Counted from the first letter of the stretch, positions 3,591 through 25,030 are shown. The stretch is DNA of 64,000 nucleotides from an uncultured Chloroflexia bacterium (GCA_963728205.1 CAVSIV010000006.1:32001-96000); one strand, 5' to 3'. Translations and numbers: made by a program. Notes: generated by a model from the sequence alone, not told the origin.

Positions 3591-3620
3591 CTCAACCAGC
3601 GCTCAACGGTGTCTGCCTAG
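3591..3620 (+). promoter_or_regulatory. Shared bipartite motif, copy upstream of the Wzz-like gene
   Basis: CTCAACCAGCGCT-N12-CCTAG; same spacing as the copy at 15979. Confidence 0.45.
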
Positions 3621-3676
3621 TGTGCCGGCGGGCTGGGGCTCCGGCATCAGCGGCCGACAGCGAAGGAGAGTCGAGC

Positions 3677-5511: not shown

Positions 5512-5521
5512 GGGGCGCGTG

Positions 5522-5665: not shown

Positions 5666-5680
5666 CCCTGGCGGTACGCC

Positions 5681-7818: not shown

Positions 7819-8839
7819 CGTCGACGTCGTGATCGCGACCCGCAACCGCCCGCAGCCGCTCGAACGCTGCCTCACCGCGCTGACGCGCCAGGCGTACCGC
7901 GACTTCGGCGTGATCGTCGTCGACGACGCGTCGGACGAGCCGGTCGCGGACCACCTGCCACGCGACCTGCGCGATGCGCTCACGCCCACCGTCCTGCGGC
8001 AGGAGCGGCGCGCGGGGCCGGGCGCTGCCCGCAACGCCGGCGTCGCCGAGAGCGGCGCGCGCTACATCGTCTTCGTCGACGACGACGTGTGCGCCCAACC
8101 CGAGCTCGTCGCCCGCCACGTGGCTGCGCTCGCCGCGGGCGATGGCGAGCGGCGCGCGGCGATCGGTCCGCTCGCCATGCCGCCGGACTGGCGTCCCACC
8201 CCGTGGAATCTCTGGGAGGCGCGCACCGTCGACGTCGAGTACGGGCGGATGCTGCGCGGCGAGTACCGCCCCACGTGGCGCCAGTTCCATACCGGAAACG
8301 CCTCGCTCGTCCGCGCCGACTTCGAGGCGGTCGGCGGATTCGACGAGCGGTTCGACCGCGCGGAGGACATCGAGCTCGCGCTGCGGCTGCGCCAGCACGG
8401 CGTCGAGTTCGTCTTCGACCCGCTGGCGATCGGCTGGCACTACGCCCACCGCTCGCTCGCGGCGTGGCGCAACGTCGCTCGCAGCTACGCACGCACCGAC
8501 GTGATGCTCTCGGAGCTGCACCCCGAGCTCGGCTGGCTCCACGCCATCGGGCGCGAACGCGCCCGCCGCCATCCCGCGCTGCTGCTCGCCCGGCGCGCGT
8601 TCGAGCGACGCGCGCTGCGCCCGCTCGTGACCGCTGGAGCGACCGGCGCCGCCCGGGTCCTGCACGCGGCGCGCGCTCGGCGCCTCGCGATGTACGGACT
8701 GAGCCTCGCCTACGACCTGGAGTACTCGGACGCACTGCGGCACGAGGTGCGGGCGGCATGCCCCGTCGCCGGCGGCACGCCGTGGGGCGCCGCGTCGCGA
8801 CGGGACGCACCGCATCGAAGGAGACAGGCCGATGCCTAG
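7811..8839 (+). CDS. Glycosyltransferase family 2
   Basis: VVIATRNR, VVDDAS, ARNAG, FVDDD, GGFDERF, EDIELALRL. Confidence 0.92.
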   Translation: MRDVDVVIATRNRPQPLERCLTALTRQAYRDFGVIVVDDASDEPVADHLPRDLRDALTPTVLRQERRAGPGAARNAGVAESGARYIVFVDDDVCAQPELVARHVAALAAGDGERRAAIGPLAMPPDWRPTPWNLWEARTVDVEYGRMLRGEYRPTWRQFHTGNASLVRADFEAVGGFDERFDRAEDIELALRLRQHGVEFVFDPLAIGWHYAHRSLAAWRNVARSYARTDVMLSELHPELGWLHAIGRERARRHPALLLARRAFERRALRPLVTAGATGAARVLHAARARRLAMYGLSLAYDLEYSDALRHEVRAACPVAGGTPWGAASRRDAPHRRRQADA

Positions 8840-9890
8840 CACGCCGACCGCGGTCCGCGCGGCGATCTGCATCGAGGAGACGCTCGGGCACCGCACGCAC
8901 GGTCAGAACCTCGAGCGCTCCTTTCAGCTCGCTCGGATGAACGTCGACTTCCACCGCATCGAGTACCCGCTGGTGCCGGACGAGGTGCCATGGGCGGCGC
9001 GTGCCAGCGTGTCGGCGCTCCGCCGGCTGCGCGCGGCTCCGCGCTACGGCGTCACGATGTTTCACACGCAAACCACCGCGCTGCTCGCGCCCGAGGCCAC
9101 GCGCGGCGAGCCGTTCGTCATCAGCATGGACGCGACGCCGACGCAGATGGACGCGATGGGCGAGTGGTACAACCACCCGCGGCAGCCGGGGATCGTGGAG
9201 CGGGCGAAGCGCGGCCTCTACCGCCGCGTCCTGCGCCAGGCCGCCGGCGTCGTGACCTGGTCGCGCTGGACCGCGGACTCGGCGGAGCGCGACTACGGCA
9301 TCGCCGCCGATCGCATCACGGTGCTGCACCCCGGCGCCCCCGACGCGTACTTCGCGCTGCCGCGCCGCGCGTGCCGGCGGTCGGGGCCCGTGCGCATCCT
9401 CTTCGTCGGCGGCGACTTCGCGCGCAAGGGCGGGCCGGCGCTGATCGAGGCGTTCCGGCCGCTCGCGGATCGCGCCGAGCTCACGGTCATCACGCAGGAG
9501 CCGCTCCCGCCCGAACCCGGCCTCCGCGTCGTCAACGGCGTGATCCCGGGGAGCGACGAGCTGCTCCGCGCCTACGCCGACGCCAATCTCTTCTGCCTGC
9601 CCACACTCGGCGACTGCACGGCGGTCGTGCTCGGCGAGGCGATGGCCGCCGGGCTCCCGGTGGTCACGACCGCGATCGCGTCGAACCCGGAGTGGGTCCC
9701 GCCCGAGGCGGGCATCCTCGTCGCGCCGGGCGACGGCGCCGCGCTGCACGAGGCGCTGCGCACGCTCGTCGACGACGGCGCGCTGCGCGAGCGCATGAGC
9801 GTCGCGGCGCGCACGCACGCCGCGGCGGGCATGCACGCCGAGCGCAACGCCGTGCGCCTCGCGCAGCTGCTGGCGCAGGTCGCATCGTGA
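8832..9890 (+). CDS. Glycosyltransferase family 4
   Basis: ILFVGGDFARKGG, ANLFCLPT, EAMAAGLPVVTT, GILV. Confidence 0.9.
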   Translation: MPSTPTAVRAAICIEETLGHRTHGQNLERSFQLARMNVDFHRIEYPLVPDEVPWAARASVSALRRLRAAPRYGVTMFHTQTTALLAPEATRGEPFVISMDATPTQMDAMGEWYNHPRQPGIVERAKRGLYRRVLRQAAGVVTWSRWTADSAERDYGIAADRITVLHPGAPDAYFALPRRACRRSGPVRILFVGGDFARKGGPALIEAFRPLADRAELTVITQEPLPPEPGLRVVNGVIPGSDELLRAYADANLFCLPTLGDCTAVVLGEAMAAGLPVVTTAIASNPEWVPPEAGILVAPGDGAALHEALRTLVDDGALRERMSVAARTHAAAGMHAERNAVRLAQLLAQVAS

Positions 9891-11098
9891 ACGCGGACTG
9901 GCTGGGCGGCCTGCCCGCGCGCCCGCCGATGACGTGGCTGTGCGTCAGCGCGACCGCGCAGGAGACCGCGCAGCTGCGCGCGGCGGGTCCCCGCCGCGAC
10001 TTCCTCGAGCTGCAGCGCGAAACCGAAGGCACGCTCCTGTTCCGCAACGGCACGCCGCGCGGCGGCGGCTGGCGCGGACGCCTGCTCGGGCCGCACGTGG
10101 GACAGGCCTGGCGCGCCGCGCGGCTCGTGCTCGACGGCGACGTCGCGTTCGCGGACGGCGAGCACGTCGGCCTGCCGCTGCTCGCGTTCCTGCGCCTGAA
10201 CAGGCGGCATCCGCGGCGCGTCGTCATGCTCGGGCACCTGCCGGGACGTCCGTGGAAGCGGCGTCTCTTCGCCATGCTGACGGCAGGCGGCGGCGGCGTC
10301 GGGGCGGGCGGCGAGGGCGTGCTCGTCGTGCACAGCGTCGCCCAGGCCGACCGCCTGCGCGGCCTGATGGGACCGCGCTGGCGGCTCGCGCTGCTGCCGT
10401 ACCAGGTCGACGCCGACTACTGGCGCAGCCGCTCCGCGCCGACGGAGGATCCGCCGCTGATCGTCGCCGCCGGCAGCGAGCACCGCGACTATGCCACGCT
10501 GCTGCAGGCGGTGGACGGACTCCCGGCGCGGGTGGTGATCGCCGCGGGGAGCCACTGGGCACGCCGGTCGGCCGCGCACGGCAGCCTCCCCGCGAACGTC
10601 GAGTGGATCGAGCGAACGCTTCCGTTCCGCGAATTGCGCGACCTCTACGAGCGGTCGTCAGTCGTGGTCGTGCCGCTGCAGGACGTGCCCAACCAGTCCG
10701 GGGTCACCACGATCCTCGAGGGCATGAGCATGGCGCGCGCGGTCGTGGTCTCGGCGACGGCGGGACAGCGCGAGATCGTGCGCGGCCCGATCGTCGGCAC
10801 GGGCGACGACCTCGACGGACCCGCCGACCCCGAGCGCGGGCCGCAGGTGCTGCTGCCCGGCGCACCGGACGAGGCGACCACGGGCTGCTACGTGCCGCCC
10901 GGGGACGTCCCCGCGCTGCGCGCCGCGCTCGAACGACTGCTCGCGGACCGCGCACGCTGCACGGCGCTCGGCGAAGCCGCGCGCGCCGCGGTCGAGCGCC
11001 ACTTCACGATCGAGGCCTTCACCGCGCGCCTCGCCGCGACGCTCCTCGGTCCGCCGACGGTGGCGACGGCGGGCGCCCCCGCCGAAGCGCAGCCGTGA
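9887..11098 (+). CDS. Glycosyltransferase family 4-like
   Basis: RDYATL, VVVVPL, SGVTTILEGMSMARAVV, TGCYVPPGDVPALRAAL. GTG start overlapping the previous stop. Confidence 0.85.
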   Translation: MNADWLGGLPARPPMTWLCVSATAQETAQLRAAGPRRDFLELQRETEGTLLFRNGTPRGGGWRGRLLGPHVGQAWRAARLVLDGDVAFADGEHVGLPLLAFLRLNRRHPRRVVMLGHLPGRPWKRRLFAMLTAGGGGVGAGGEGVLVVHSVAQADRLRGLMGPRWRLALLPYQVDADYWRSRSAPTEDPPLIVAAGSEHRDYATLLQAVDGLPARVVIAAGSHWARRSAAHGSLPANVEWIERTLPFRELRDLYERSSVVVVPLQDVPNQSGVTTILEGMSMARAVVVSATAGQREIVRGPIVGTGDDLDGPADPERGPQVLLPGAPDEATTGCYVPPGDVPALRAALERLLADRARCTALGEAARAAVERHFTIEAFTARLAATLLGPPTVATAGAPAEAQP

Positions 11099-12264
11099 GC
11101 GCGCTCGGCGTCCTCGTGATCACGCTGGCGCTCCCCGGCCTCGTCGCCGGCACGTGGTGGACGCTGCTCAACCTGGTGGCGCTGCGGCGCCCGCGGCGGG
11201 CGCTCGCCGCCCCGCGCGTGCCGCGCCCGCTGCGCCCGCCGCGGCTCGCCGTCCTCGTGCCCGCGCACGACGAGGAAGCCGCGCTGCCGGCCTGCCTCGC
11301 GAGCCTCGCGGCCGCCGCGTTCGTGCCGCGTCCCGAGGTCGTCGTGATCGCCGACAACTGCAGCGATCGCACCGCCGCGGTTGCCCGCGCCGCCGGCGTG
11401 TCGGTGCTCGTGCGCGACGACCCGCGCCGCGGCAAGGGCTACGCGCTCGAGTTCGCGGTCGAGGCGCTCGCCGCGCGACGGCGCCCGCCCGACGCGGTCC
11501 TGTTCATCGACGCGGACTCGACGGTCTCGCGCGACATCTACACCGCGATCGCGGCCCGCCTCGCCGGCGGCGCCCGCGCGGTCCAGGTCTACTACGAGGC
11601 GGAGCGGGGAACGACGAGCCTGAGCGGGCTGCGACGGCTCGCGTTCATGCTCCTGCACTGGTCGCGGCCGCTCGGCGCGCGGCGCCTCGGGCTCGGCACC
11701 GCGATCCGGGGCAACGGGATGGCGCTGGCGTTCGACGCTGCGCGCGGCGGGCTCGGCGCCCACGGGATCGCCGAAGACGCCGCGATGACGCTCGCGCTCG
11801 CGCGGCGCGGCGACGCTGTCGCGTTCGAGCCGTCCGCGTGGGTGCGCGGCATGATGGCCGCGCGCTATCGCGGCGCCCGCACGCAGGATCGCCGCTGGGA
11901 GGCGGGCCGGCTCGCGCTGGCACCGCGCGCGCTCGCGATCGCGGCCGGCCAGCTCGCGCGCGGGCGAGCCGCCAGTGCCGCAAGCGCGCTCGAGGTCGCC
12001 GTCCCGCCGCTGAGCCTGCTCGTCGCGAGCACGCTGGTCGCGCTCGCGCTCGCGGCCGCGACAGGCGCCGGCCGGGGTTGGGCGCTCGCCGGCGCGGCCG
12101 CGGTGGCGACGTATGTCGTCACGGGGCTGGCCGCCGCGCGGCCGCCGATGCGGGACCTGCTCGCGCTGCGCGACGCGCCGCGCTTCCTGTTCCACAAGCT
12201 CACGGTCTACGCGAGCCTCGCGGTGGGCCGAGCGCCGCGCACCTGGCAGCGGACGGAGCGCTGA
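11095..12264 (+). CDS. Membrane-associated glycosyltransferase family 2 (processive/cellulose-synthase-like)
   Basis: VPAHDEE, ADNCSD, GKGYAL, IDAD, GNGM, AED, QDRRW (QxxRW motif), C-terminal TM helices. Confidence 0.88.
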   Translation: MSALGVLVITLALPGLVAGTWWTLLNLVALRRPRRALAAPRVPRPLRPPRLAVLVPAHDEEAALPACLASLAAAAFVPRPEVVVIADNCSDRTAAVARAAGVSVLVRDDPRRGKGYALEFAVEALAARRRPPDAVLFIDADSTVSRDIYTAIAARLAGGARAVQVYYEAERGTTSLSGLRRLAFMLLHWSRPLGARRLGLGTAIRGNGMALAFDAARGGLGAHGIAEDAAMTLALARRGDAVAFEPSAWVRGMMAARYRGARTQDRRWEAGRLALAPRALAIAAGQLARGRAASAASALEVAVPPLSLLVASTLVALALAAATGAGRGWALAGAAAVATYVVTGLAAARPPMRDLLALRDAPRFLFHKLTVYASLAVGRAPRTWQRTER

Positions 12265-12784: not shown

Positions 12785-12953
12785 GCTCCGGCCCGCCGTT
12801 CTAGTTCCGACTTGGCGGGGTTGTGTGCTCGTGCTCTCGGACGGTGGGGCGGCAGGGCCTGCATCGCCGCCCAGAGACGTGGACGGGCCGGGGGGCGTTC
12901 CCCAGGCGATCTCGGCGCGTCACGCCTGAGCACCCACGGTGGAAAGGACTTAC

Positions 12954-15710
12954 ATGAACCGGGCTGCCAGAATCGCGCGCATCGCTGCGCCAATCTTCGC
13001 CGCACTCGTCATGGCGGCCTGCGCCCAGGCACACGCCGCACCCACCGCGCAGCCATACCTCGCGACCTTCGACGGAACCCCGTCGGCGCCACTCCCCTTC
13101 GATGCTCCCGGGTTCGACATCTTCAAGCACTCGCGCGACGTCAGCACGTGGAATACGCCGGAGACCATCCTCGGCGCCCACGGGCCGGACTGCGGGAAGC
13201 CCAACGTCGCGGACCTGAACGGCGGCGGCGGACCCGGCGTGCATCCGATCACCACGTATGACGGGCTCGTCTACCAGTGCAGCAACCACGTCATGACCGC
13301 GATGATGGCCGGCGGGTACGGCGCGATCTACCTCACGCCCGACCACCTGCTCGACTTCTCGGGCGGTAGCGCGACTTTCTCGATCGACGTGTCGACGTTG
13401 CGCACCTCGAACCGCGACTGGATCGACTTCTGGTTCAGCCCGTACAGCGGCAACATGGTGTTCCCCTTCGGCACGTTCCTCACCACGGACGGGCAGGGCG
13501 TGCCGCTCGACAACGTGAACGTAGCGATGCCGGTCGACGCACAGCGCTCGGGCCTCTTCACGGCGACGGAGACGGTCAACGGACAGTCGACCACGCTGCC
13601 GATGCACGACAACCGGTCGTGGACCTCGGTGCTGACCGAGTCCTGGATGCAGCGGCAGACGATCCAGGTCGAGCTGAGCCGCACGCACATCAAGGTCTCC
13701 ATGCCTGCGTTCGGCCTCGTCTGGGTCGACGCCGACTTCGCCACGCCGCTGCCGTTCGACCAGGCCGTCGTGCAGTTCGGGCATCACTCGTACAACCCGC
13801 AGAAGGCTGACTCGTGCGGGACCAACTGCGAGCCCGACACGTGGCACTGGGACAACGTGTCCCTCTCCCCGGCCGTGCCGTTCACGATGATCAAGGGCGA
13901 CCAGCGGCAGGTGGTCGAGGTCGGCCCGTCGCAGTCGAACGATTACTGCATCCCGTCGTGCCCGGGCAACGCCGTCGTGCACTTCGCGAGCCCGGCTCCG
14001 GCCGGCGCGATGTTGCGCTTCGCGGGCGTCGGGCAGATCGAGTTCAGTACGGACGGCTCGACGTGGACCACGCCGACGGTGGTGCCGGGCACTGCGCAGG
14101 GCGCGCATCCGGAGCACGACAGCTCATACTTCACGCCGATCCCCGCGGGGACGACCCAGGTCGAGTTCCGATTCGCGCAGGGCGCGATCGCCGACCAGCG
14201 CGTCGAGGACATCTCGATCTGGTCGCAGTCGACGCCGTCCGGGCGGACGATCGGTGCGACGGGCCCGGCCGTGCCGCCCGCGACGGCGCCGGCGACGGCG
14301 GTGCCGACGCCGCAGCCCACGGCCATGCCCGCCTCGACCCCGACATCGGTGCCGATCTCCGCCGCCGGCTCGCCGCCGGCGTCTCCGTCGGGAGGCGATT
14401 CCTCACCGGCGACGCCGACCACGTTCAGCAGCACCGCGCGCATGCAGATGGTGGTCTGGAGCGGGAGCACGACCGATCAGCTGGTGTCGGCCGCATCGGC
14501 CGCCGGCGTCACCGCGACGGAGTTCGTGAGCGGGCAGCCGGTCACGCTCGTGCCGGGCGCGCCGACCTTCGTCAACGCTGCCTTCGTGGCTGCGTTCCCG
14601 TCGAACCGCGTGCCGGCCGGCACGATCCTGATCCTGCAGCCGATGTCGGCGTCGATGTCCGGCTCGCCGGCGGCCACCCCGGTGGCGGGCGCGCCGCCGA
14701 CGCCGGCCCCGACCGCGAACCCAACCCCGAAGGCGACACCGACGGCCGCACCGTCGCCGACGCCCGCACCGACGCGATCGGCGGGACGGGGGGCGTCGAC
14801 GCTGCTGTCGTGGCAGGGCCGCCAGTGGGATGCCGCGGGGGTCAACGTCCCCTGGCTCCAGTACGGTTGCGACTTCGGCTGCGCCGCGAAGGGCGGCGTG
14901 AGCCGCGCGGATGACACGGCCGCCCTCGACAGCGCCTTCGCACAGGCGGCCGGCGCGGGTGTCCACGTCGTCCGCTGGTGGATGCTGCCGGGCGACCCGT
15001 GGCAGATCAGCCGGGCGTCCGACGGCACGCCGACGGGCATCAACCCCGCGATCTACACGGACATCGACGCGGCGCTCGCGCTCGCGCGGAAGCATGACCT
15101 CTACTACGACTTCGTCCTCTTCTCGGCGCCCGATGCCCTCCCGCAGAGCTGGTTCACCGATCCGAGCCAGCGGGCGGCGCTCGCGAGCGTGCTGGGTCAG
15201 CTGTTCGCCCACTACGCGAACGAGCCCCGGATCATGTCGTGGGAAATCTTCAACGAGCCCGAGTGGGACTACTGGAACAAGGGGTACGCGAAGCAGCCGA
15301 TCATCGACCTGACGCAGGCCATCGTGCAGTCGGTCCACGCGAACTCGCACGCCATGGCGACGGTCGGGTCCGCGATGGTCGACGGGCTGCCGGACTGGGT
15401 CGGCGTTGGTCTCGATTACTACCAGGTCCACTGGTACGACTACATGTCGTCGGGCACCTGGTGCGCGATGTGCTCGAGCACCCAGATGCTGCAGCAGCAG
15501 TACGGGATCGACAGGCCGGTCGTGGTGGGTGAGTTCTACGCCGGACCCGACGTCGATGCGTTGCAGCGGCTGCAGGACTTCGCCTCGAAGGGCTACGCCG
15601 GGGCGTGGGCGTGGTCGCTGTTCCCGGACCACACGTCGGACCACATGGCTGTGGATTTGAACGCGTACCGGCAGTTCACGAGCAGCCAGTCGAACATCGG
15701 ACCGCAGTAG
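12954..15710 (+). CDS. Secreted multidomain protein: unknown N-terminal beta-rich domain, Pro/Thr linkers, C-terminal clan GH-A (GH5-like, possibly mannanase) catalytic domain
   Basis: Signal peptide (LVMAAC or AHA site), P/T/S linkers, GVNVPW, VVRWW, WEIFNEPEW (acid/base), QVHWY, VVVGEF (nucleophile), GAWAWS. AAGGA RBS before ATG 12954. Confidence 0.8.
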   Translation: MNRAARIARIAAPIFAALVMAACAQAHAAPTAQPYLATFDGTPSAPLPFDAPGFDIFKHSRDVSTWNTPETILGAHGPDCGKPNVADLNGGGGPGVHPITTYDGLVYQCSNHVMTAMMAGGYGAIYLTPDHLLDFSGGSATFSIDVSTLRTSNRDWIDFWFSPYSGNMVFPFGTFLTTDGQGVPLDNVNVAMPVDAQRSGLFTATETVNGQSTTLPMHDNRSWTSVLTESWMQRQTIQVELSRTHIKVSMPAFGLVWVDADFATPLPFDQAVVQFGHHSYNPQKADSCGTNCEPDTWHWDNVSLSPAVPFTMIKGDQRQVVEVGPSQSNDYCIPSCPGNAVVHFASPAPAGAMLRFAGVGQIEFSTDGSTWTTPTVVPGTAQGAHPEHDSSYFTPIPAGTTQVEFRFAQGAIADQRVEDISIWSQSTPSGRTIGATGPAVPPATAPATAVPTPQPTAMPASTPTSVPISAAGSPPASPSGGDSSPATPTTFSSTARMQMVVWSGSTTDQLVSAASAAGVTATEFVSGQPVTLVPGAPTFVNAAFVAAFPSNRVPAGTILILQPMSASMSGSPAATPVAGAPPTPAPTANPTPKATPTAAPSPTPAPTRSAGRGASTLLSWQGRQWDAAGVNVPWLQYGCDFGCAAKGGVSRADDTAALDSAFAQAAGAGVHVVRWWMLPGDPWQISRASDGTPTGINPAIYTDIDAALALARKHDLYYDFVLFSAPDALPQSWFTDPSQRAALASVLGQLFAHYANEPRIMSWEIFNEPEWDYWNKGYAKQPIIDLTQAIVQSVHANSHAMATVGSAMVDGLPDWVGVGLDYYQVHWYDYMSSGTWCAMCSSTQMLQQQYGIDRPVVVGEFYAGPDVDALQRLQDFASKGYAGAWAWSLFPDHTSDHMAVDLNAYRQFTSSQSNIGPQ

Positions 15711-15786: not shown

Positions 15787-15899
15787 GCCGCACCGCCGAC
15801 CGCGCGCCCATCGCCGCACCGCCGCCCGCGCGCCCATCGCCGCACCGCCGCCCGCGCGCCCATCGCCGCACCGCCGACCGCGCGCCCATCGCCGCACCG
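15787..15899. repeat. Tandem repeat, 4.3 x 26 bp
   Basis: Unit GCCGCACCGCCG(A/C)CCGCGCGCCCATC at 15787, 15813, 15839, 15865, plus a partial unit; no spacers. Confidence 0.9.
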
Positions 15900-15978
15900 G
15901 CCATCGCCCGCCGCAGCGTCCGCGCCGCCGCCCCCGTCGCGCACCGGTGCTGAATGCCATCGCCCGGCGACTCTATTG

Positions 15979-16047: not shown

Positions 16048-16339
16048 GTGACGCAAGCCAACGAGATCGATGTGCTCGCGACCCGCCTGCCCGGCGAGCA
16101 CGTGGTCGCGAGCGCCGTCGGCGACGTGATGGTGCTGCTCGACCTGCGTTCCGGCACCTACCACACGCTGAACGACCTCGGAACCCTGATCTGGGGCGCA
16201 CTCGAGCGCGGCGCGAACGTCGGCGTCATCGTCGACGAGATTCTGCGCCGCCTACGACGTCCGTCGAGACGAGGCGCTCGTGGACGCGCAGCGGTTCCTG
16301 GCCGAGATCGACGCGGCCGGTCTGGTGCGCCGTCCGTGA
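16048..16339 (+). CDS. Lasso peptide B1 protein (PqqD-family RiPP recognition element), apparent +1 frameshift at ~16241
   Basis: VGDVMVLLDLRSGTYHTLNDLGTLIWGAL is typical PqqD/RRE. Removing one T at 16241 gives EICAAYDVRRDEALVDAQRFLAEIDAAGLVRRP*, the canonical RRE C-terminus, ending at TGA 16339 overlapping the B2 GTG. GAGGAG RBS. Confidence 0.88.
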
Positions 16340-16785
16340 CGCAACCCAGGTGGACCGCGGCGCAGGACACCCTGGTGGCCGTGGCATGGCTCGCGCAGAC
16401 GACCGTGCTCTTCCGCCTCCGCGGCAGGAAGGCCGTCGCGGCGGCGACGAAGCGGGCCATGAACGTCCGCCCCAGCTCGCAGGCCGAGATCGCCGCGCGC
16501 AAGGCGACGGCCTGGCGCGTCCACCGCGCGGTGCTCCGGGCGAAACGCGCCTGGCCGATGGAGGCGCGGTGCCTGCAGACCGCCCTGACGATGCAGGCCG
16601 TGCTCCGGCACCACGGACTGGACGCGCCCGTGCGCGTCGGCGTCCGCGCCGCGGACGGTGAGCTGCTCGCGCACGCGTGGGTGGAGCTCGACGAGCGCTT
16701 CCGGCTCGACGACAGCGCCGCGCGCCCCGACTTCCAGCTGCTCGTCGCTCGCCGCCCCGCCGCGAGCGCCTCCGAGAGGGCCTAG
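16336..16785 (+). CDS. Lasso peptide B2 leader peptidase (transglutaminase-like)
   Basis: ARCLQTAL (catalytic Cys), VRVGVR, LAHAWVE (His), following Asp; GTGA overlap with corrected B1. Confidence 0.92.
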   Translation: MTQPRWTAAQDTLVAVAWLAQTTVLFRLRGRKAVAAATKRAMNVRPSSQAEIAARKATAWRVHRAVLRAKRAWPMEARCLQTALTMQAVLRHHGLDAPVRVGVRAADGELLAHAWVELDERFRLDDSAARPDFQLLVARRPAASASERA

Positions 16786-16789
16786 TGCG

Positions 16790-18739
16790 ATGAGCGGCGT
16801 GATGGCCCTGCTCTCGCTCGACGGGCGTCCGCTCTCCGAGGAGCGCGCGCACGCCATGGCGACGGCGATTGCGCACCGCGGCGACGGCGATCCGCGCCTC
16901 TGGCTCGGCCAGGCGGCGACCGCCGGAATCGCCCTCGGGCAGGCCCATCGCCCCACGACGCCCGAGGCCGAGCGCGAGGTGCTGCCCGGCAGCAGCCGGC
17001 ACGGCCAGGATCCGGGTCGCTTCTGGATCGCCTGGGACGGCCGCATCGACAACCGCGATGAGCTCGCCCGGCGCCTCGGGGTCGAAAGCGCGGAGGCGCA
17101 CGACTGGACGGACGCCGACTACGTCCTCGGCGCATACGCACGCTGGGGCAGCGATTGCGCCCCACAGCTCCTCGGCGACTGGGCCATCGTGATCTGGGAC
17201 GGCCTCCACCGCCGGCTCTTCTGCGCGACCGATCCCTCCGGCTCCCGCCAGCTCTACTACCGGGAAGCGTCCGGCATGCTCGCCGTGGGCTCGGAACCGC
17301 TGCAACTCTTCGCCGGGGACGGCGTACCCGCCATCCACCACGAGTACGCGCTGCGCTTCCTCGCGCAGGCCTACCTCGACCCGGCCGAGACCGAGTACGC
17401 CGGCGTGCGCAACCTTCCGGGCGGCACGGCACTGACGGTCGAGTGCGGGCGCCTCGCCACCCACACCTTCTGGCGCTACCCGCGCATCACGCCCCGCCGC
17501 TACCGCCGGCCGGAGGAGTACGTCGACGAGTTCGCGGACACGCTGGCCCGCGCCACCGCTGCGCGGCTGCGCTCGAACCGGCCGCTCGGCGTGTTTCTCA
17601 GCGGCGGGCTCGACTCCTCCTACGTCGCCGCCGTGGCGGCGCAGCAGGGCGCGAACCTCGTCGCGATCAGCAGCTACGCACCGGGCACCGCCTGGGACGA
17701 GCGCGGCTACCAGCTGCAGGTCGTCGAGCACACCGGCATCGCCTACCGCGCGGTCGACATCAGCGACTGCTGGGCCCTCACCCAGCGTTACCTGCCCGTC
17801 GAGACGTTCGACAGCATCCACCACCCGGGACAGTCCGCAATGGTCGTGCGCCTCGGGCGCGCGGCCGCGGACGAGGGCGTCGGCGTCACCCTCGGCGGCG
17901 ACGGCGCGGACGCATGGATGGGCGGGGCATCGACCTACATCGCCGACGCCGTCGTGCGCGCGCGTCCCGGCGAAGCACTCCGGCTCGCGCGCCTCGCCGC
18001 CGGCGCCCGTTCCGCTTCTACGCCGCGCACGCTCGCGCGTCACGCCGCGGCCGGCCTGCTGCCGCCCGCGTGGGTGCGCGCGGTGCGGCGCGCCCGCGGC
18101 CACGACCGCCTCCCGGACGCCCGGCCCGCCATCGTCGAGCCCGCGCGCCTGCGCGCTCCGCACCTCCCCGACGCCGGCACGGCGTGGTCCCCCCGCGCGG
18201 TGCGCCGCCGCGAGTGGGACGCGTGGCGCTGGCAGGGTCCGCAGCACGCGCCCTGGCGGGAACGCCACGCCCTCAGCCCGTACGGCGTCGAGCACCGCGC
18301 GCCCTTCCATGACCTGCGCGTCGTCGAGCTCATGGCGTCGACGCCCGACTGGGTCAAGCGCTTCCGCGGCCGCACGAAGGACGTGCTCCGCGAAGCCGAA
18401 TACCGCGTGCTGCCGCGGGCGATCCCCGATCGGCGGGACAAGGCGCCGTACGACGAGCTCTGGCTCCGCGGCGTGCACGACCGCGAACGCCAGCGCGTCG
18501 CCGACGCGCTGGACGCGGTCACGCGCCTCCCCGGCGTGCGCGCCGACGCGGCGCGCGAGGAGGTTGAGCGGTATCTGGACGCGGCGCACGCCGGGACGCG
18601 TCCCGCCTGGAGGCTGGTCAGCGCCGGCCTCTGGCTTCAATTCGTGGACACCCTGCGTTCGGTTCGGTCCAGTTCGAACGCAGTTGAAACAGGCAGGGTC
18701 GGCTCGCCGGCCCCCGCACCGAAAGAGGGCATCTCATGA
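16790..18739 (+). CDS. Lasso peptide cyclase C (asparagine-synthetase-like)
   Basis: Starts MSG (no catalytic Cys1), GRIDNRDEL, LSGGLDSS ATP pyrophosphatase motif, DER, GDGAD, RAPFHDLRVVE, K..LR, RRDK. Lies between B2 and the precursor. Confidence 0.92.
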   Translation: MSGVMALLSLDGRPLSEERAHAMATAIAHRGDGDPRLWLGQAATAGIALGQAHRPTTPEAEREVLPGSSRHGQDPGRFWIAWDGRIDNRDELARRLGVESAEAHDWTDADYVLGAYARWGSDCAPQLLGDWAIVIWDGLHRRLFCATDPSGSRQLYYREASGMLAVGSEPLQLFAGDGVPAIHHEYALRFLAQAYLDPAETEYAGVRNLPGGTALTVECGRLATHTFWRYPRITPRRYRRPEEYVDEFADTLARATAARLRSNRPLGVFLSGGLDSSYVAAVAAQQGANLVAISSYAPGTAWDERGYQLQVVEHTGIAYRAVDISDCWALTQRYLPVETFDSIHHPGQSAMVVRLGRAAADEGVGVTLGGDGADAWMGGASTYIADAVVRARPGEALRLARLAAGARSASTPRTLARHAAAGLLPPAWVRAVRRARGHDRLPDARPAIVEPARLRAPHLPDAGTAWSPRAVRRREWDAWRWQGPQHAPWRERHALSPYGVEHRAPFHDLRVVELMASTPDWVKRFRGRTKDVLREAEYRVLPRAIPDRRDKAPYDELWLRGVHDRERQRVADALDAVTRLPGVRADAAREEVERYLDAAHAGTRPAWRLVSAGLWLQFVDTLRSVRSSSNAVETGRVGSPAPAPKEGIS

Positions 18740-18864
18740 AGAAGACTTACGAGCGCCCGGCGCTGACGACCCGTGGCGACATCCGCGCCATCACCCAGGG
18801 CTCGGGCGCCCTCGGCTTCGATGGCTTTGACAGCACGTGGCTTCAGACGGACGCGGTCTCCTAG
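18736..18864 (+). CDS. Lasso peptide precursor A (42 aa; not in ORF track)
   Basis: MKKTYERPALTTRGDIRAITQ|GSGALGFDGFDSTWLQTDAVS*. YxxPxL leader motif, Gly, Thr at -2, core Gly1 and Asp8, C-terminal Ser. AGAGGG RBS; ATGA overlap with cyclase stop. Confidence 0.93.
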   Translation: MKKTYERPALTTRGDIRAITQGSGALGFDGFDSTWLQTDAVS

Positions 18865-18924
18865 GAGCGCGTTCCTGAGCTAGCGCGGCGCGCGGGTGTT
18901 GGACCGACAACTCGCGCGCGGCAC

Positions 18925-18954
18925 GTCAGTCGCAGGGTGTCTGTCTGTTCCTAG
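18925..18954 (+). promoter_or_regulatory. Degenerate shared motif upstream of the lasso kinase
   Basis: GTCAGTC...CCTAG with 26-nt offset; also shares GGTGTCTG with the 3591 copy. Confidence 0.25.
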
Positions 18955-19031
18955 AGAGGGCGGCGCGGCGGCCGCGTCGCCCTCTCCGTCAGTGATGCAC
19001 ATACGGACGCGACGGTGAGAGGACGGGCCCG

Positions 19032-20060
19032 ATGGCGACGCGAGCACTGCCCCCGCCCGCAAGCGCGTCGCCGCGCCGCGCGGGCGACCGCTACCACGCG
19101 CTCGGCGGCATCGTCGACTCCGACTTCCCGCTCGCTGATCTCGAGCCCGCCCGCGACGCGCCCGCCCTGGCGCCGGCGGCGGTCGTGCGGCGCCACGAGG
19201 GCACGTTCCCTCCGCTCGGCGCGCTCGTGCGCGAGGTGTGCGCCGCCGACGGGCGGCCGCTCCTTCGGCAGCACTCCTCGCCGGCCGGTCTGCAGATGGA
19301 CGTCGCCGGCGTCGGCCGCTTCTGGATCGACCCCGCAGGCATGAACGTGCGCTACCGCCTGGAACGCGGCGCTGCGGCGCTGGACGTCGAGAGCTACCTC
19401 CTCGGCCCGGTGCTGACGGTCGCGGCACAGATGCGCGGCGAGATGATCTTCCACGCCGGCGCGTTCCTGCTGGACGAGGCAGCCGTCGCCTTCACCGCGC
19501 CCTCCGGGGGCGGGAAGTCGACGCTGGCCGCGAGCGTCGCGCACGCGGGCTACCCCCTCCTCTCGGACGACGTGCTCCCGGTGCGCGAGGAACGCGACGC
19601 GCCGATGGCCTCCCCCTACCTCCCGAAGCTGAAGCTGCGCGACGACTCGCTCGCGATGCTGGGCGAGGCGCCGGAGCGGTTCGCGCGCACGCTCACGTTC
19701 CACGACAAGCGGCGCGTCCGCGTCGAAGCGGACGGGCTCGGCCGTCTCGCGACGCGGCCGGTGCCGCTGCGCGCCTTTTACCGGCTGGCGCCGCACCGGC
19801 GCGACGAGCGCGCCGCGACGGTCGACATCCAGCCGCTCGACCCGGCGCAGGCCTGCCTCGTGCTCCACTCCTCCGTCTACACGCCGGAGCTGCTCGCCGG
19901 CGCACGCGCCGGGCGCACGCTCGCCGCCGCCGCGCGGCTGGCGGCTGCCGTCCCCGTGCGGGTGATCTCCTACTACCGCAGCTACGAGCACCTGGCCGCC
20001 GTGCGCGACGCGCTGATCGCCGACGCGCGGTCACTGCTCGCCGAAGGAGCCGCGCGATGA
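19032..20060 (+). CDS. HPr-kinase-like lasso peptide kinase (PadeK/ThcoK-type)
   Basis: FHAGAF, Walker A APSGGGKSTLAA, LLSDDVL; first gene downstream of a precursor ending in Ser. Confidence 0.85.
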   Translation: MATRALPPPASASPRRAGDRYHALGGIVDSDFPLADLEPARDAPALAPAAVVRRHEGTFPPLGALVREVCAADGRPLLRQHSSPAGLQMDVAGVGRFWIDPAGMNVRYRLERGAAALDVESYLLGPVLTVAAQMRGEMIFHAGAFLLDEAAVAFTAPSGGGKSTLAASVAHAGYPLLSDDVLPVREERDAPMASPYLPKLKLRDDSLAMLGEAPERFARTLTFHDKRRVRVEADGLGRLATRPVPLRAFYRLAPHRRDERAATVDIQPLDPAQACLVLHSSVYTPELLAGARAGRTLAAAARLAAAVPVRVISYYRSYEHLAAVRDALIADARSLLAEGAAR

Positions 20061-21076
20061 CGCCTCCGCTGGTGTGCGTCGAAGGGCTGCATCGCGAGTT
20101 CCAGGGACCGCTCGACTGGCGGCGGCTCGCCCGCCTCCGCTGGGAGCGCCGCGGCGAGGCCGCGCCGCTGCGCGGCGTGACCTTCTCGGTCGACGCCGGC
20201 GAATGGCTCGCGATCATCGGCGGCAACGGCGCCGGGAAGACGACCGTCCTCAAGGTCATCGCCGGTCTGCTGCTGCCGAGTTCGGGCCGCGTCGTCGTCG
20301 ACGGGATCGACGTCGTGCGGCACCCGCGGCGCGTGCAGGCGATGGTCGGCTACGCGCTCGCGGACGAGCGTTCGTTCTTCTGGCGCCTCAACCTGCTCGA
20401 CAACCTCGAGTTCTTCGCGACGCTGGTCGGCGTGCCCCGCCGCGAGCGGCGCGCGCGCAGCGAGCACCTGCTGGAGCGACTCGACCTCGCAGCGCACGCC
20501 GAGCGGCCGTTCGCAGCGCTCTCGACGGGCATGAAGCAGCGCCTCACCATCGCGCGCGCGCTGCTCGGTCGCCCGCGGGTGCTGCTGCTCGACGAGCCGA
20601 CCCGGAGCCTCGACGGCGAGCACGCCCGCCAGGTCTGGTCGGTCGTGCGCGACGAGATGCAGGCGACCGGCGGATCCGTGCTGCTCGTGACGCACCAGCT
20701 GGAGGACGCCGTGTCCCAGTGTCACCGGGTCGCGACGCTCCACGACGGCGTGATCGCCCTGGAGTCGACCGCCGACCAGCTGCGCGAGCGCGCGTCCGGG
20801 TCACACGGCCTGATCATCGCCGTGCGCGACCTGCCTCGCCCCATGCTCGCCCGCCTGCGCGACTTCGAGGGTGTGCGCGACATCCGCGTCGCGTCGGAGA
20901 ACGCCGGAGAGCAGGTCCTCGAGGTGTGGACCCGGAACGGGGACCTCCCGCTGGCCGGGTTCATCGGCGAGCTCACCAGCAGCGGCGCCAGCATCGCATC
21001 GCTTCAGCAGGGCATCCCGCTCCAGGCCGTCCTCGAACAACTGCAGGCCGGCGTCCCGCAGGAGGTGCCCGCATGA
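20057..21076 (+). CDS. ABC-2 type exporter ATP-binding subunit
   Basis: GGNGAGKTT, LSTGMKQR, LLLDEPT, VTH; C-terminal extension; ATGA-coupled. Confidence 0.93.
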   Translation: MTPPLVCVEGLHREFQGPLDWRRLARLRWERRGEAAPLRGVTFSVDAGEWLAIIGGNGAGKTTVLKVIAGLLLPSSGRVVVDGIDVVRHPRRVQAMVGYALADERSFFWRLNLLDNLEFFATLVGVPRRERRARSEHLLERLDLAAHAERPFAALSTGMKQRLTIARALLGRPRVLLLDEPTRSLDGEHARQVWSVVRDEMQATGGSVLLVTHQLEDAVSQCHRVATLHDGVIALESTADQLRERASGSHGLIIAVRDLPRPMLARLRDFEGVRDIRVASENAGEQVLEVWTRNGDLPLAGFIGELTSSGASIASLQQGIPLQAVLEQLQAGVPQEVPA

Positions 21077-21870
21077 GCATGGCCATGGCCTTCGTCCGGC
21101 GCGACCTCCGGGTGGCGTGGAGCTATCGCTTCAACTTCTTCCTCCAGCACCTCAGCGTGCTGGGCACTCTCGTCACGATGCGCTTCATGGCCGACGTCGT
21201 CGGGTCGAGCAGCGCGTCGCTCGCCCCGTACGGCAGCGACTACTTCTCGTTCGCGCTGATCGGGATGGCGATCCAGCTCATGGCGTTGCCGGCGGCCACC
21301 ACGTTCCGGGACGCCGTGCGCAACGCGCAGCTGACGGGCACCTTCGAGGCGATGCTGGCGACGCGCGGACACCCGGCGCTGATGATCCTCTCGTCCGGGA
21401 TCTACGCGCTCGGCATGATGCTCGTGCGGCTCATCGTGATCGTGCTCGTCGTCGGGATCGTGCTCGGGGCGCACCTGCGGCTCGAGAACCTCGCCGAGGT
21501 CATCCTCGTGCTGGCGATGACGATGGGCGCGTTCTCCGCGTTCGGCCTGCTGTCGACCGCGTTCACGATCGCGACGAAGCAGACCGAGCCGTTCACGATG
21601 CTCATCCTCTCGCTGTCCGGGGTCGTGAGCGGCGTGCTCTACCCGACCAGCGTCCTGCCGCACTGGCTGGCGGCGGTCGCCCCGTTCCTGCCGATGACCC
21701 ACGCGCTCGAGCTCACGCGCGGACTCTTCATCCAGGGGGCGAGTGTCGGCTCGCTCGCCGGCAGCTTCATCGCACTCGCCGCGTTCACCCTGCTGCTTCC
21801 CATCAGCGTGGTCGTGCTGATGGTCGCGGTCACGTGGGCGAAGCGAACGGGCTCGCTCGCGCACTACTAG
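21073..21870 (+). CDS. ABC-2 type exporter permease
   Basis: RRDLRVAWSY, GTFEAML, SGVLYPTSVLPHWL, P.THALELTR; six TM segments. Confidence 0.92.
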   Translation: MSMAMAFVRRDLRVAWSYRFNFFLQHLSVLGTLVTMRFMADVVGSSSASLAPYGSDYFSFALIGMAIQLMALPAATTFRDAVRNAQLTGTFEAMLATRGHPALMILSSGIYALGMMLVRLIVIVLVVGIVLGAHLRLENLAEVILVLAMTMGAFSAFGLLSTAFTIATKQTEPFTMLILSLSGVVSGVLYPTSVLPHWLAAVAPFLPMTHALELTRGLFIQGASVGSLAGSFIALAAFTLLLPISVVVLMVAVTWAKRTGSLAHY

Positions 21871-22122: not shown

Positions 22123-22533
22123 ATGCGCGACACCTATACCCTCGTACTCGGCCCGGCGAGCGCCGCCGACACGACACGAGAGATCGTTGAACACATCCGG
22201 GCGCGCGGCATGAACGCGTGGTCGGAATCGCTCGAGGACACGCCGCCGAACACGGCGGCCATGGCCTGGGCAGACGCCGTCGTCCTCGTCGACCCGACGC
22301 CGGATGCGACGCTCGCACACGCACCGATCTCCTGGCAGCGCAAGCCGCGCATCCTCGTCGCCGGGGCGTGGTTGGAGGGCACGTCTCGCGCAGGCCTCCT
22401 CGACGACGGATTCGATCAGGTGCTGTCATCGGAGTCGAGCCCGCTGATCATCGCGGCGCACGCCGAACGGCTGCTCAATCGTGGCATGATGTCTACCGAC
22501 CTTCGGAAGGGCCCCCTGGCGCCCGAGCGTTGA
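22123..22533 (+). CDS. Hypothetical protein, possible degenerate stand-alone receiver domain
   Basis: Alpha/beta pattern with DAVVLVD and GLLDDGFDQVL..IIAAHAERLLNR resembling a receiver C-terminus; AAGGA upstream. Confidence 0.55.
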   Translation: MRDTYTLVLGPASAADTTREIVEHIRARGMNAWSESLEDTPPNTAAMAWADAVVLVDPTPDATLAHAPISWQRKPRILVAGAWLEGTSRAGLLDDGFDQVLSSESSPLIIAAHAERLLNRGMMSTDLRKGPLAPER

Positions 22534-22626
22534 CGGGTAGACGCGGGCGGGGGTGTGGAGGTCTCCGTCGCGCGCGGGTGGTCGCCGGGCGCACGGCATG
22601 GTTCGACCTGGCGGTTCCAACGAGAG

Positions 22627-22656
22627 CGCAGCCCTTGCTCGACATTCTCGATCTAC
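22627..22656 (+). promoter_or_regulatory. Shared bipartite motif upstream of the response regulator
   Basis: CGCAGCCCTTGCTCGA...CTAC with 26-nt offset; TTGCTCGA also present in the 1744 copy. Confidence 0.35.
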
Positions 22657-22736
22657 AAGGAGAGCCGTCCCCCGGCTCGCTGGGTGATACCCCGCGAGGC
22701 GGCCCGCCGCGTCGACCAGTAGATCGTTCAGGGCTC

Positions 22737-23504
22737 ATGCTTGTCGTGCTCGGTACCGCGGATCCCGCAGTGAACCTCTCGATCGCTCGCGATCTCGCGC
22801 AGATCGGTTTCGCGGTGATCGGCGCTTCGACCGCCGCCGAGACGATCCGCAGCGCGTTCGACGCGCAGCCGGATGCGGTCATCGTCGACCTGCAGCTGGC
22901 GGAGGTCTCGGCGATCGAGCTGATCCGCACCCTGCGCGCGGGCGTCGACATCCTGATCCTGGCCATGGGCAACGTCAGCGGGCCGGCGGAAGTGGTCGCG
23001 ATCCTCGAGGCCGGGGCGGACGACGTCGTCCCGTACGCGATCGAGCAGGTCGAGCTCGGCGCGCGGCTTCGCGCCGGGCTGCGCCGTCGCACGCGGGCGC
23101 ATACCGAGGTGGAGACCGCTTCGCTGGTCACGACCGGCGACCTCGTGATCGACCGGACCATGCGGAGCGTGACCAAGGGCGGCGAACCCGTCCACCTGAC
23201 CCGCACCGAATACCGGCTGCTCGACGCGCTGGCGTCGCGCGTCGGCCAGGTGGCCCCGCACGGCTTCCTCGCGACGATGCTGTCGAGCTCCGATACGACG
23301 GGCAGCCTTCACTCGCTCCGGCTGTACATCAACTACCTGCGCAAGAAGCTCGAGGACGACCCCGGGGAGCCGGAGTACCTCATCACCGAATGGGGCATCG
23401 GATACCGGCTCGCCGCGCGACCGGCGGCGCGGATCCCCGCCAACGAGGCGGCGCCGCCCGAAGCCGACGAGACGAACGAGCCCGGGCCCGAACCGGACGG
23501 GTAA
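22737..23504 (+). CDS. OmpR/KdpE-type response regulator with atypical receiver
   Basis: PDAVIVDLQL, LEAGADD, winged helix VHLTRTEYRLL, LRLYINYLRKKLEDDP..P.YLITEWGIGYR. Confidence 0.88.
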   Translation: MLVVLGTADPAVNLSIARDLAQIGFAVIGASTAAETIRSAFDAQPDAVIVDLQLAEVSAIELIRTLRAGVDILILAMGNVSGPAEVVAILEAGADDVVPYAIEQVELGARLRAGLRRRTRAHTEVETASLVTTGDLVIDRTMRSVTKGGEPVHLTRTEYRLLDALASRVGQVAPHGFLATMLSSSDTTGSLHSLRLYINYLRKKLEDDPGEPEYLITEWGIGYRLAARPAARIPANEAAPPEADETNEPGPEPDG

Positions 23505-23515
23505 GGCCAGACCGC

Positions 23516-25030
23516 CTAGATCTGACCGCGTCCCGTCTCCGCTACTGCCCCCGCGCGCCGCGGTGCGCTCGCCCGTTCCGTCGCAAGCGGCAGCCATACC
23601 GTGAACGTCGTGCCCACGCCGGGCCGCGAGTCCACCGTGATCGTGCCGTCGAGCTCGGCGACCAGTTCGCGCGTCGCCACGAGCCCCAGTCCGTAGCCCT
23701 GCGTCGCGGTCTTCGTCGTGAAGAACGGCTCGAACACGCGGTCGCGGATCTCGGGCGACATGCCCGTGCCGGTGTCACGCACCACGATCTCGACGCCGGG
23801 CGCCGCGTGCTCCACGGCGGCGCCGACCATCCGCACCGACAGATCGACGTGGCCGCGCGCGGTCCCCGGGTCGGCCGACTCAATGAGCGACTCGAGCACG
23901 GCATCGCGCGCGTTCGTCAGCAGGTTGGTGCAGATGCGATGAACGTCGCCGGACCCCGCGGCCACGGGGAGCGGTGCGGGCGGCAGATCGAGTTGCAGGC
24001 GGATCCGCCGGTCGAGCCCCTCCTTCGTCGCGTCGACGGCGTCGCTCACAACCGCTCGGATGTCCGGGGTGAGCGACGCGGGGCGCTGCGCGCGGTCGAC
24101 GGCGGCGCGCGCGAACTCGATCAGCTCGCGCGAGAGGCCGGCGGCTCGCGTCGTCGCGCGGATCGCGCGGCCGAGGTGCTCCGGTTCGCCCGCATCCTCC
24201 ATCGCCATGTCGAGCGAGACGCCGATCACCGAGAGCAGGTTGTTGAAGTCGTGCGCCACGCCCGCCGCGAGCGTGCTCACCGCCTCCAGCCGCTCGGCGC
24301 GTGCCCGCGACGCCTCCGCGTCGCGCCGGGCACTGAGGTCGTGCCCGATCAGCAGGACGCTGTCGTCGCCGAGCGCGATCAGGTCGCAGTACACCGGGAC
24401 GACCGTGCCGTCGCCGCAGCGCACCTCGCGCTCGACCTGCGCCGCGCCGACGCCCACCGCGCGGTCGACTGTGCCCTTCGACGACGGGTCGACGTCGGCG
24501 ATGAAGTCGCGGAAGTGTCGGCCGAGGATCTGCTCGCGGGGGTACTTGAAGAACTCGCAACCGGCGTCGTTGACGTAGCTGTAGATGCCGTCGCCGTCGA
24601 TGATGCCAATCGGGTCGCTGGCCGCCGAGAGCGCGCGGCGGAAGCGGGCGTCGCTCTCGCGGCGGGCCTCCGCGGCGCGGCGATAGCGCAGGATGATGGG
24701 GCGAAGCGCCGCGGCCATGCCCGCCAGCGTGACGGCGCCGAGCAGCAGCGACACCTGGACGGTGCCCGGCAGCGCCGCATGGCCGGCTCGCGCGTACTGG
24801 ATCGCCGCGAAGGTGCGCTCGGCCGCCGACAGCGCGAGCGCGAGGCCGACGATCAGCCACACGCGGGCCTCGCCGCGCGCGGCGCCCCGCGAGAGGTCGA
24901 ACGCCGCCCACGCCGCGACCGCGAGGGCAGCCACCGAGATGGCGACGGCCGCTCCACCCAGACTGCCCACGAGAGCCCCCGCCTCACCCGACAGCGCGAC
25001 GCCTCGTCCCAGTATGACGAATGCATTCAA
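23516..25030 (-). CDS. Membrane PAS-domain sensor histidine kinase
   Basis: Three TM helices, PAS (YVNDAGCEFFKY), H-box GVAHDFNNLL, N-box NLLTNARDA, DTGTGM, FEPFFTTK, GLGL. TTG start uncertain. Confidence 0.92.
   Translation of the reverse strand: MNAFVILGRGVALSGEAGALVGSLGGAAVAISVAALAVAAWAAFDLSRGAARGEARVWLIVGLALALSAAERTFAAIQYARAGHAALPGTVQVSLLLGAVTLAGMAAALRPIILRYRRAAEARRESDARFRRALSAASDPIGIIDGDGIYSYVNDAGCEFFKYPREQILGRHFRDFIADVDPSSKGTVDRAVGVGAAQVEREVRCGDGTVVPVYCDLIALGDDSVLLIGHDLSARRDAEASRARAERLEAVSTLAAGVAHDFNNLLSVIGVSLDMAMEDAGEPEHLGRAIRATTRAAGLSRELIEFARAAVDRAQRPASLTPDIRAVVSDAVDATKEGLDRRIRLQLDLPPAPLPVAAGSGDVHRICTNLLTNARDAVLESLIESADPGTARGHVDLSVRMVGAAVEHAAPGVEIVVRDTGTGMSPEIRDRVFEPFFTTKTATQGYGLGLVATRELVAELDGTITVDSRPGVGTTFTVWLPLATERASAPRRAGAVAETGRGQI

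Follow-up and report, generated by a model that had tools for sequence, protein, structure and literature searches.

A putative class II lasso-peptide operon with an HPr-kinase-like gene in an uncultured Chloroflexia bacterium

Positions 16048-21870 of a 64,000-nucleotide (nt) stretch of DNA from an uncultured Chloroflexia bacterium (GCA_963728205.1, CAVSIV010000006.1:32001-96000), the whole of which is referred to here as the window, carry seven genes on the + strand in the order B1-B2-C-A-K-D1-D2 (Table 1). Together they probably constitute a class II lasso-peptide operon of the kinase-bearing type, the product of which would be phosphorylated, with the frameshift in B1 being an error of the assembly. 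The genes are tightly packed; 4-nt overlaps occur at four junctions (GTGA at B1/B2 and ATGA at C/A, K/D1 and D1/D2), while the gap between B2 and C is 4 nt and that between A and K is 167 nt. An earlier reading of the window, made from its sequence alone, had proposed a lasso-peptide cluster with split B1 and B2 proteins and mostly translationally coupled genes. Every part it named was found in its place on the + strand, the overlaps bear out the coupling, and the gene identities, gene order and family matches agree with the cluster type.

Table 1. Features of the putative lasso-peptide operon, in coordinates of the window.
Feature	Position	Strand	Basis
B1, PqqD-like RRE, predicted leader binder	16048..16339	+	Pfam PqqD, NCBIfam lasso_PqqD_Strm
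B2, transglutaminase-like Cys/His leader peptidase (predicted), 149 aa	16336..16785	+	Transglut_core3, lasso_biosyn_B2
C, asparagine-synthetase-like lasso cyclase (predicted), 649 aa	16790..18739	+	Asn_synthase, SGGLDSS, MSGV start
A, precursor (predicted), 42 aa	18736..18864	+	Leader motif, Gly1/Asp8 core
A-K spacer, two G+C-rich stem-loops	18865..19031	+	RNA folding vs shuffles
K, HPr-kinase-like kinase, 342 aa	19032..20060	+	NCBIfam HprK_rel_A, fold match
D1, ABC exporter ATPase, DrrA-like, 339 aa	20057..21076	+	Pfam ABC_tran
D2, ABC-2 permease, 265 aa	21073..21870	+	Pfam ABC2_membrane
26-nt tandem repeat, upstream of B1	15787..15930	n/a	Repeat search
RRE, recognition element of ribosomally synthesised and post-translationally modified peptides; aa, amino acids; ABC, ATP-binding cassette.

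The precursor gene A begins with an ATG that overlaps the stop codon of C, and the Shine-Dalgarno sequence AAGAGGG lies upstream of it. Its product divides into a predicted leader, MKKTYERPALTTRGDIRAITQ, and a predicted core, GSGALGFDGFDSTWLQTDAVS. Lasso leaders are described in the RODEO literature by the motif YxxPxLx3Gx5Tx, and the segment YERPALTTRGDIRAITQ of the leader matches this spacing with Thr at position -2. The importance of the motif is stated in PMC10368454. The core opens with Gly1, has Asp8 as its sole acidic residue at positions 7-9, and closes the precursor with the residues DAVS. All six frames of the 4.1-Mb genome were scanned for the leader motif followed by an acidic residue at core position 7-9 and a tail of 10-35 aa; a single open reading frame (ORF) matched this pattern, namely A, and given a unique match in a genome of this size, the precursor is more than a product of chance. 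When it was aligned with the precursors of three relatives, M1, K3, Y5, P8, G14, D15, T20 and D29, the last being the ring Asp, were invariant in all four sequences. The leader/core boundary drawn in the sequence-only reading, after Thr(-2)-Gln(-1), fits the spacing conserved in this alignment, and the Gly1-Asp8 ring that it predicted is consistent both with the invariant Asp column and with the lack of any other acidic residue at positions 7-9. Because the core is devoid of Cys, the predicted peptide is by definition a class II lasso peptide, as had been claimed. F10, W14 and L15, named in the same reading as candidate plugs, are conjectural.

Against the NCBIfam models, the precursor scored 31 bits with lasso_cyano (NF033528; cut-off 33) and 18.9 bits with lasso_leader_L3 (cut-off 19). 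A low-depth contig from a metagenome run (X2, described below) spans the whole A ORF; among the differences listed for it, three fall within the ORF, two of them synonymous and one a Leu-to-Ile substitution at core position 5. The 42-aa protein is present in a public protein collection as an unnamed product of the contig to which the window belongs. A search of 5.8 billion clustered proteins with the precursor matched only the precursor itself, and an 8-residue piece of the core did not occur in the literature searched; the failure of the earlier reader to recognise the core is thus matched by these searches, and the predicted core sequence appears undescribed as far as could be searched. Immediately behind A, the A-K spacer folds into hairpins at about 18884-18920 and 18955-18986, with a minimum free energy of -92.5 kcal/mol (z -2.45; 3 of 200 shuffled sequences fold as well), and these are possibly transcript-stabilising or attenuating.

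The proteins encoded around A have family matches in keeping with such a pathway. B2 starts with a GTG that overlaps the stop of B1, and it matches Pfam Transglut_core3 with 68.2 bits and NCBIfam lasso_biosyn_B2 with 61.7 bits, over the cut-off of 33; C79 and H113, the second of which is the His in AHAWVE, do not vary among the three sequences aligned. The product of C matches Pfam Asn_synthase with 137 bits and retains the PP-loop SGGLDSS. Asparagine synthetase AsnB begins MCG, the Cys being its nucleophile. C begins MSGV, with Ser in place of that Cys, as do the cyclases of both relatives compared, which upholds the earlier description of a cyclase lacking Cys1. Its best NCBIfam match was lass_lactam_cya (NF033535), with 256 bits against a cut-off of 525, followed by asn_synth_AEB (189 bits) and AsnB PRK09431 (83 bits, cut-off 499), both also under cut-off. 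The sequence-only reading had named grouping with bona fide AsnB as an outcome that would speak against it; the lasso cyclase model scores highest, 256 vs 83 bits. Sequence searches of solved structures with C and B2 gave nothing beyond general Asn-synthetase-type enzymes. D1 matches Pfam ABC_tran (108.5 bits) and, under its cut-off, NCBIfam drrA (191 bits), and D2 matches Pfam ABC2_membrane (40.8 bits) and is 45-52% identical to the permeases of relatives' clusters.

The order B1-B2-C-A-K-D1-D2 recurs in three relatives known from metagenome-assembled genomes (MAGs) of Dehalococcoidia (G020, G004 and L016), with protein identities of 44-57%, and the cluster genes other than B1 align with those of the relatives over their full length in a single frame. 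Cyclase matches at E <= 1e-20 occur in nine of the 40 nearest other genomes (or 10 of 41 with the window's own genome), and the two best of these matches are 46% identical and lie in the same gene order. An alignment of the kinase found matches at E <= 1e-10 in 12 of 401 genomes sampled from the class, the own genome included, and the trait is therefore sparse. With the same alignment, a metagenome scan returned six loci only, all of them distant. A precursor was not identified at the Sphingomonadaceae locus L018. In the related cluster at L016:3786-5940, the cyclase and, as it seems, the precursor too are interrupted by changes of frame. The literature searched, some of it available in part, revealed no lasso peptide characterised from bacteria of the class Dehalococcoidia, and the portion of PMC4289311 available tabulates no lasso cluster for Chloroflexi. 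Papers that mention lasso peptides together with Chloroflexi or Chloroflexota appear to be surveys based on genome mining. The locus would add to the record of soil bacteria of the Dehalococcoidia class an undescribed lasso core and a small family of lasso clusters that include a kinase gene.

The feature that sets the expected product apart from a simple lasso peptide is the kinase. K matched NCBIfam HprK_rel_A at E 3.3e-11, under its cut-off, and no family in the local copy of Pfam; a profile built from three K sequences matched solved HPr kinases in the Protein Data Bank (PDB) over the P-loop region at E 0.011. An AlphaFold2 model of K, made from 33 sequences, had a mean pLDDT (predicted local distance difference test score) of 93.1, and Foldseek aligned it with phosphoenolpyruvate carboxykinases (PEPCK) at E 1.8e-6 and with HprK/P at target-normalised TM-scores of 0.60-0.61. 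The folds of PEPCK and HprK/P are related, and the fold of the model is of the HprK/PEPCK type. From BsfK, the motif of the lasso kinases has been given as H148-G163-G166-G168-K169-S170-D186-D187 (PMC10368454); K has seven of these eight positions at identical spacing, in the series H141, A156, G159, G161, K162, S163, D179 and D180. Within a large protein collection, 171 of the 8000 candidates scored matched K at E <= 1e-5, and among these matches are Gloeobacter and Paenibacillus proteins that bear the name HPr kinase; homologues carry PF07475.

Lasso kinases that have been characterised act on the linear precursor and phosphorylate its C-terminal Ser; the precursors so modified share little beyond this residue, and proteobacterial homologues of the kinases add several phosphates (PMC8498205). 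A C-terminal Ser was found in all four readable precursors encoded beside K or its closest homologues, which are those of the window, G020 (...GPEAS), G004 (...PGGGS) and G163 (...DLTFS); the precursor of L016 was left out of this count, its end being unreadable through the frame changes in that MAG. Ser is likewise the last residue of three more peptides, encoded on two metagenome contigs. At one metagenome locus, L023:2853-3215, two lasso-like precursors were observed in tandem, both ending in Ser-Ser and one with a His-rich core, with a distant kinase homologue on the same contig. Because of this conserved residue and the precedent of the characterised enzymes, the product is expected to be phosphorylated at least once, the predicted target being the C-terminal Ser (Ser21). 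The monoisotopic mass of the cyclised core was computed as 2111.9436 Da, in agreement with the value of about 2111.94 Da calculated by hand in the earlier reading, and it would rise to 2191.9099 Da with one phosphate and to 2271.8763 Da with two. The unmodified mass given there was accordingly right, but the kinase had been assigned no role, and a species of about 2191.91 Da is also to be expected; given the predicted phosphate, a search at 2111.94 Da alone could miss the product.

One alternative accepts a working lasso pathway and moves the phosphate, having the kinase act on the ring residue Ser2 in the way that BsfK acts on Ser3. It draws on the report of a lasso kinase with that specificity (PMC10368454) and on the GSG or Ser-rich N-termini of the cores of the window, G004, L016, G020 and G163. 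However, the position of the N-terminal Ser varies among these cores (S2, S1/S3 or S3/S4), whereas the Ser at the C-terminus is found in each of the four readable precursors of the window, G020, G004 and G163. In the Bsf system, the precursor BsfA ends in Asp and BsfK is <21% identical to the kinases of C-terminal Ser (PMC10368454). Modification of the ring is for these reasons considered improbable, and the C-terminal Ser is retained as the predicted target.

The sequence-only reading had also called the cluster complete, and this is doubtful relative to the family. D2 is followed in the relatives G020 and L016 by a gene that matches Pfam NTP_transf_5 (E 8e-45 and 6e-43), and in G004 the same conserved stretch lies downstream of D2, where its single homologue was confirmed; each relative has one copy only. 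A nucleotidyltransferase gene thus follows the exporter in all three close relatives, and no NTP_transf_5 gene follows D2 in the window's cluster. The sole NTP_transf_5 match of the genome is at C6:23578-24639, some 23 kb upstream of B1, and its product is 41-44% identical to the counterparts encoded in the relatives' clusters, a level similar to that seen for the other proteins of the cluster. It is adjoined by a second PqqD gene, intact and scoring 52.8 bits, the pair occupying G000:C6:22848-24708 (L021:8848-10708); in G020 and G004, the only PqqD gene is the B1 of the cluster. The distal pair was observed to be followed by a DUF998 membrane protein and to lie within an island of sulfated-polysaccharide genes, with CysD, a sulfotransferase, adenosine 5'-phosphosulfate (APS) kinase, a flippase, a Wzy-like protein and glycosyltransferases around it.

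This arrangement permits a split pathway to be envisaged, in which the family's nucleotidyltransferase would have relocated in this genome to its distal site beside an RRE of its own and would still modify the phosphorylated precursor in trans, the phospho-Ser receiving a sugar, a nucleotide or, possibly, a modification by sulfate chemistry. We regard this proposal, taken as a whole, as unlikely. A complex prediction of the distal PqqD protein with the precursor scored 0.54 vs 0.45 for the control, values from which nothing is concluded. Were the proposal true, it would represent a lasso peptide decorated by enzymes that are recruited through a separate, dedicated RRE.

The integrity of the cluster turns on B1, which starts with a GTG at 16048 preceded by the Shine-Dalgarno sequence GAGGAG. 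As assembled, the gene has an extra T at 16241/16242 that shifts the frame; the frame then remains open for 245 codons in all and runs into B2, and the PqqD match ends at residue 68 (31.1 bits, profile positions 2-42 of 67). The remainder of the domain, YDVRRDEALVDAQRFLAEIDAAGLVRRP, is encoded in a frame displaced by one base and closes with the TGA at 16337-16339, which overlaps the GTG of B2. With the extra T omitted, B1 encodes 96 aa and reads ...IVDEICAAYDV... across the break. This read-through form matches the full Pfam PqqD domain with 59 bits (profile positions 2-67 of 67), and it aligns with the lasso RREs of known structure TbiB1 (PDB 5v1u; E 1.9e-10, residues 17-86, spanning the break as IVDeICAaYdV) and TfuB1 (6jx3; E 7e-4), and without a gap at the break with the B1 proteins of four relatives. 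Contigs from two soil-metagenome runs belonging to two studies omit one T at 16241. That of run X1 (16228-16379, depth 3) is otherwise identical over 151 nt, and that of run X2 (16190-16341, depth 2) has three other differences. The runs found are labelled soil metagenome, are of DNA, and hold 6-7% of the sampled words.

Other genes of the same assembly are broken in a similar manner. A codon-phase scan of the genome, which is unable to detect a gene as short as B1, returned 166 same-strand phase changes, 32 of which had no stop nearby. Sixteen of the 32 flagged loci, chosen as suspected frame changes, were examined (L045-L060). At 12 of the 16, one Pfam family was split over frames with abutting profile coordinates, and these include rpoB, dnaE (encoding the DNA polymerase III alpha subunit), carB and genes for H+-pyrophosphatase, NuoL-like, FliP and LeuA-like proteins; at two, consecutive domains of one protein were in different frames, and at two there was nothing. 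The RNA_pol_Rpb2_6 match, for example, is distributed over three frames (profile positions 2-98, 94-225 and 201-313). The breaks in rpoB and dnaE cannot be real lesions. Two other explanations of individual differences were tried and set aside. A systematic, methylation-linked miscall at GATC, which is how the intact form of B1 reads at the break, was rejected, GATC showing no depletion (observed/expected ratio 0.98) and GATTC no enrichment (0.96). Similarly, the deletion of one C from the CCCC run at 16725-16728 in an X2 contig (depth 2), which would fuse B2 to C in frame, was not accepted, since in the frame of the window B2 retains the C-terminal ERA that it has in common with the relatives.

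Since the two runs are without the T, its omission restores a full PqqD domain, and domains are split elsewhere in the assembly, the frameshift of B1 is best read as an assembly error and not as a lesion of the organism; the earlier reading had correctly seen the extra T in the assembled sequence, but the damage would not extend to the organism itself. On that reading the cluster is therefore probably intact in the organism. The opposite interpretation, that the cluster is a dead relic, takes the frameshift as real, the RRE as deprived of its last helix, the precursor as unprocessed and the loss of the nucleotidyltransferase as part of the same decay. The extra T and the PqqD match confined to profile positions 2-42 of 67 speak for it, as does the absence here of a gene that stands in the clusters of all three relatives. 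Nevertheless, the intact form occurs in two independent runs, the assembly also breaks rpoB and dnaE, where breakage cannot be real, the remaining cluster genes are full-length and in one frame with those of the relatives, and the variant allele of the precursor differs by two synonymous changes and a single conservative one. A relic is judged distinctly improbable. For the assembly as a whole, in which several genes are frame-broken, essential ones among them, calls of a broken gene or a pseudogene need the support of reads.

That there is no lasso system at all, with C a standard asparagine synthetase and the small ORF open by chance in DNA rich in G+C, is hardly credible, for although C falls under the cut-off of every curated model and open frames abound in DNA of 73% G+C (the value for the window), C lacks the nucleophilic Cys of AsnB and scores highest with a lasso cyclase model, while the ORF is the only motif match of the genome, lies between C and K, and is conserved with the same neighbors in relatives.

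Several observations nevertheless count against a functional, kinase-bearing lasso operon with an artefactual frameshift. Neither a product nor a transcript or an activity has been seen, all the runs that were found being of DNA, and the metagenome contigs that support the intact B1 are short and shallow (depth 2-3), with a different 1-nt deletion, at 16725, in one contig of run X2. The 16 loci inspected for split domains were picked as suspicious, so that 12 of 16 is not a genome-wide error rate. The cyclase, the kinase and the precursor all score under the curated NCBIfam cut-offs, and the position of BsfK G163 is Ala (A156) in K and its two close relatives. With regard to the site of phosphorylation, Gly or Glu is the last residue of two precursors found beside kinases that are more distant, BsfK phosphorylates Ser3 of the ring and not the C-terminus (PMC10368454), and the core has a Ser2, with a Ser-rich N-terminus recurring in relatives. 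These points are reflected in the strength given above to the reading of positions 16048-21870 as a class II lasso-peptide operon of the phosphorylated type, which we hold to be probable.

Were the operon to function in this way, the 42-aa precursor would be synthesised and its YxxPxL leader bound by B1, after which B2 would cleave behind Thr(-2)-Gln(-1). C would then adenylate the side chain of Asp8 and join it to the amine of Gly1, closing a ring of eight residues with the 13-residue tail threaded through it, and D1 and D2 would export the product; every one of these steps is inferred. For production of the peptide, B1 should be used without the extra T, the kinase should be included, and a species heavier by 80 Da should be sought.

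The surroundings of the operon were also surveyed. The 338-nt gap upstream of B1 contains a 26-nt repeat, GCCGCACCGCCGACCGCGCGCCCATC, in 5.5 copies with 89% matches (score 214); its unit was found nowhere else in the genome with <=3 mismatches, and it likely lies in the promoter region of B1. Neither a sigma-70-like promoter nor a T-tract terminator was found at the gene ends, the A-K spacer being included in the search for terminators, and no Rfam family matched the window. Further upstream, 12939-15710 is an ORF of 923 aa with a signal-like N-terminus, Pro/Thr/Ala-rich linkers and a G+C content at third codon positions of 0.93, which represents a strong coding bias; it has no Pfam match at E 1e-3. 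Positions 1575-12264 of the window, together with L021, form a polysaccharide and sulfation island that encodes an epimerase, APS kinase, a chain-length ATPase-like protein, a Wzy-like protein, three glycosyltransferases, CysD, a sulfotransferase and a flippase. Beyond the exporter, 22123-25030 contains an ORF of 136 aa with no family match, an OmpR-type response regulator (receiver and Trans_reg_C domains) and a PAS histidine kinase encoded convergently on the opposite strand. The flanks differ in the relatives, where the 136-aa ORF, the regulator and the PAS histidine kinase are not conserved.

Lasso clusters with a kinase are an already described type, and what is new here is the core sequence. 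The closest parallel is provided by the paeninodin type of the Firmicutes and Proteobacteria, with the kinases PadeK, ThcoK and SyanK, where a single cluster likewise encodes split B1 and B2 proteins, a cyclase, an ABC exporter and an HPr-kinase homologue. Ser is the last residue of the precursor there as well as here, and K retains the His, the P-loop GxGKS and the DD pair (PMC8498205; PMC10368454). Unlike those systems, the present cluster is from a different phylum, its relatives being Dehalococcoidia MAGs; it has the order B1-B2-C-A-K-D1-D2, with A in the middle, a core unrelated to anything found and Ala in place of the first Gly of the kinase motif, and its nearest named Paenibacillus kinase homologue was matched at E 2.7e-10 over 31% of the query. 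A second parallel is with the pseudomycoidin and Bsf systems, in which a kinase is combined with a nucleotidyltransferase and the product is phospho-glycosylated; the K and NTP_transf_5 genes of the relatives form K+N pairs of this kind (PMC8498205; PMC10368454), whereas the N gene of the window's genome lies outside the cluster, about 23 kb upstream. The Bsf system also differs in that BsfK targets Ser3 and the leader has Ile(-2), in contrast to the Thr(-2) and C-terminal Ser found here (PMC10368454). For the precursor and the cyclase, the best models are the cyanobacterial-type lasso families of NCBIfam (NF033528 and NF033535, respectively), both under cut-off. The solved lasso RREs, TbiB1 (5v1u) and TfuB1 (6jx3), bear comparison with the read-through form of B1 only; TbiB1 is the protein of Thermobaculum terrenum, a bacterium affiliated with the Chloroflexota.

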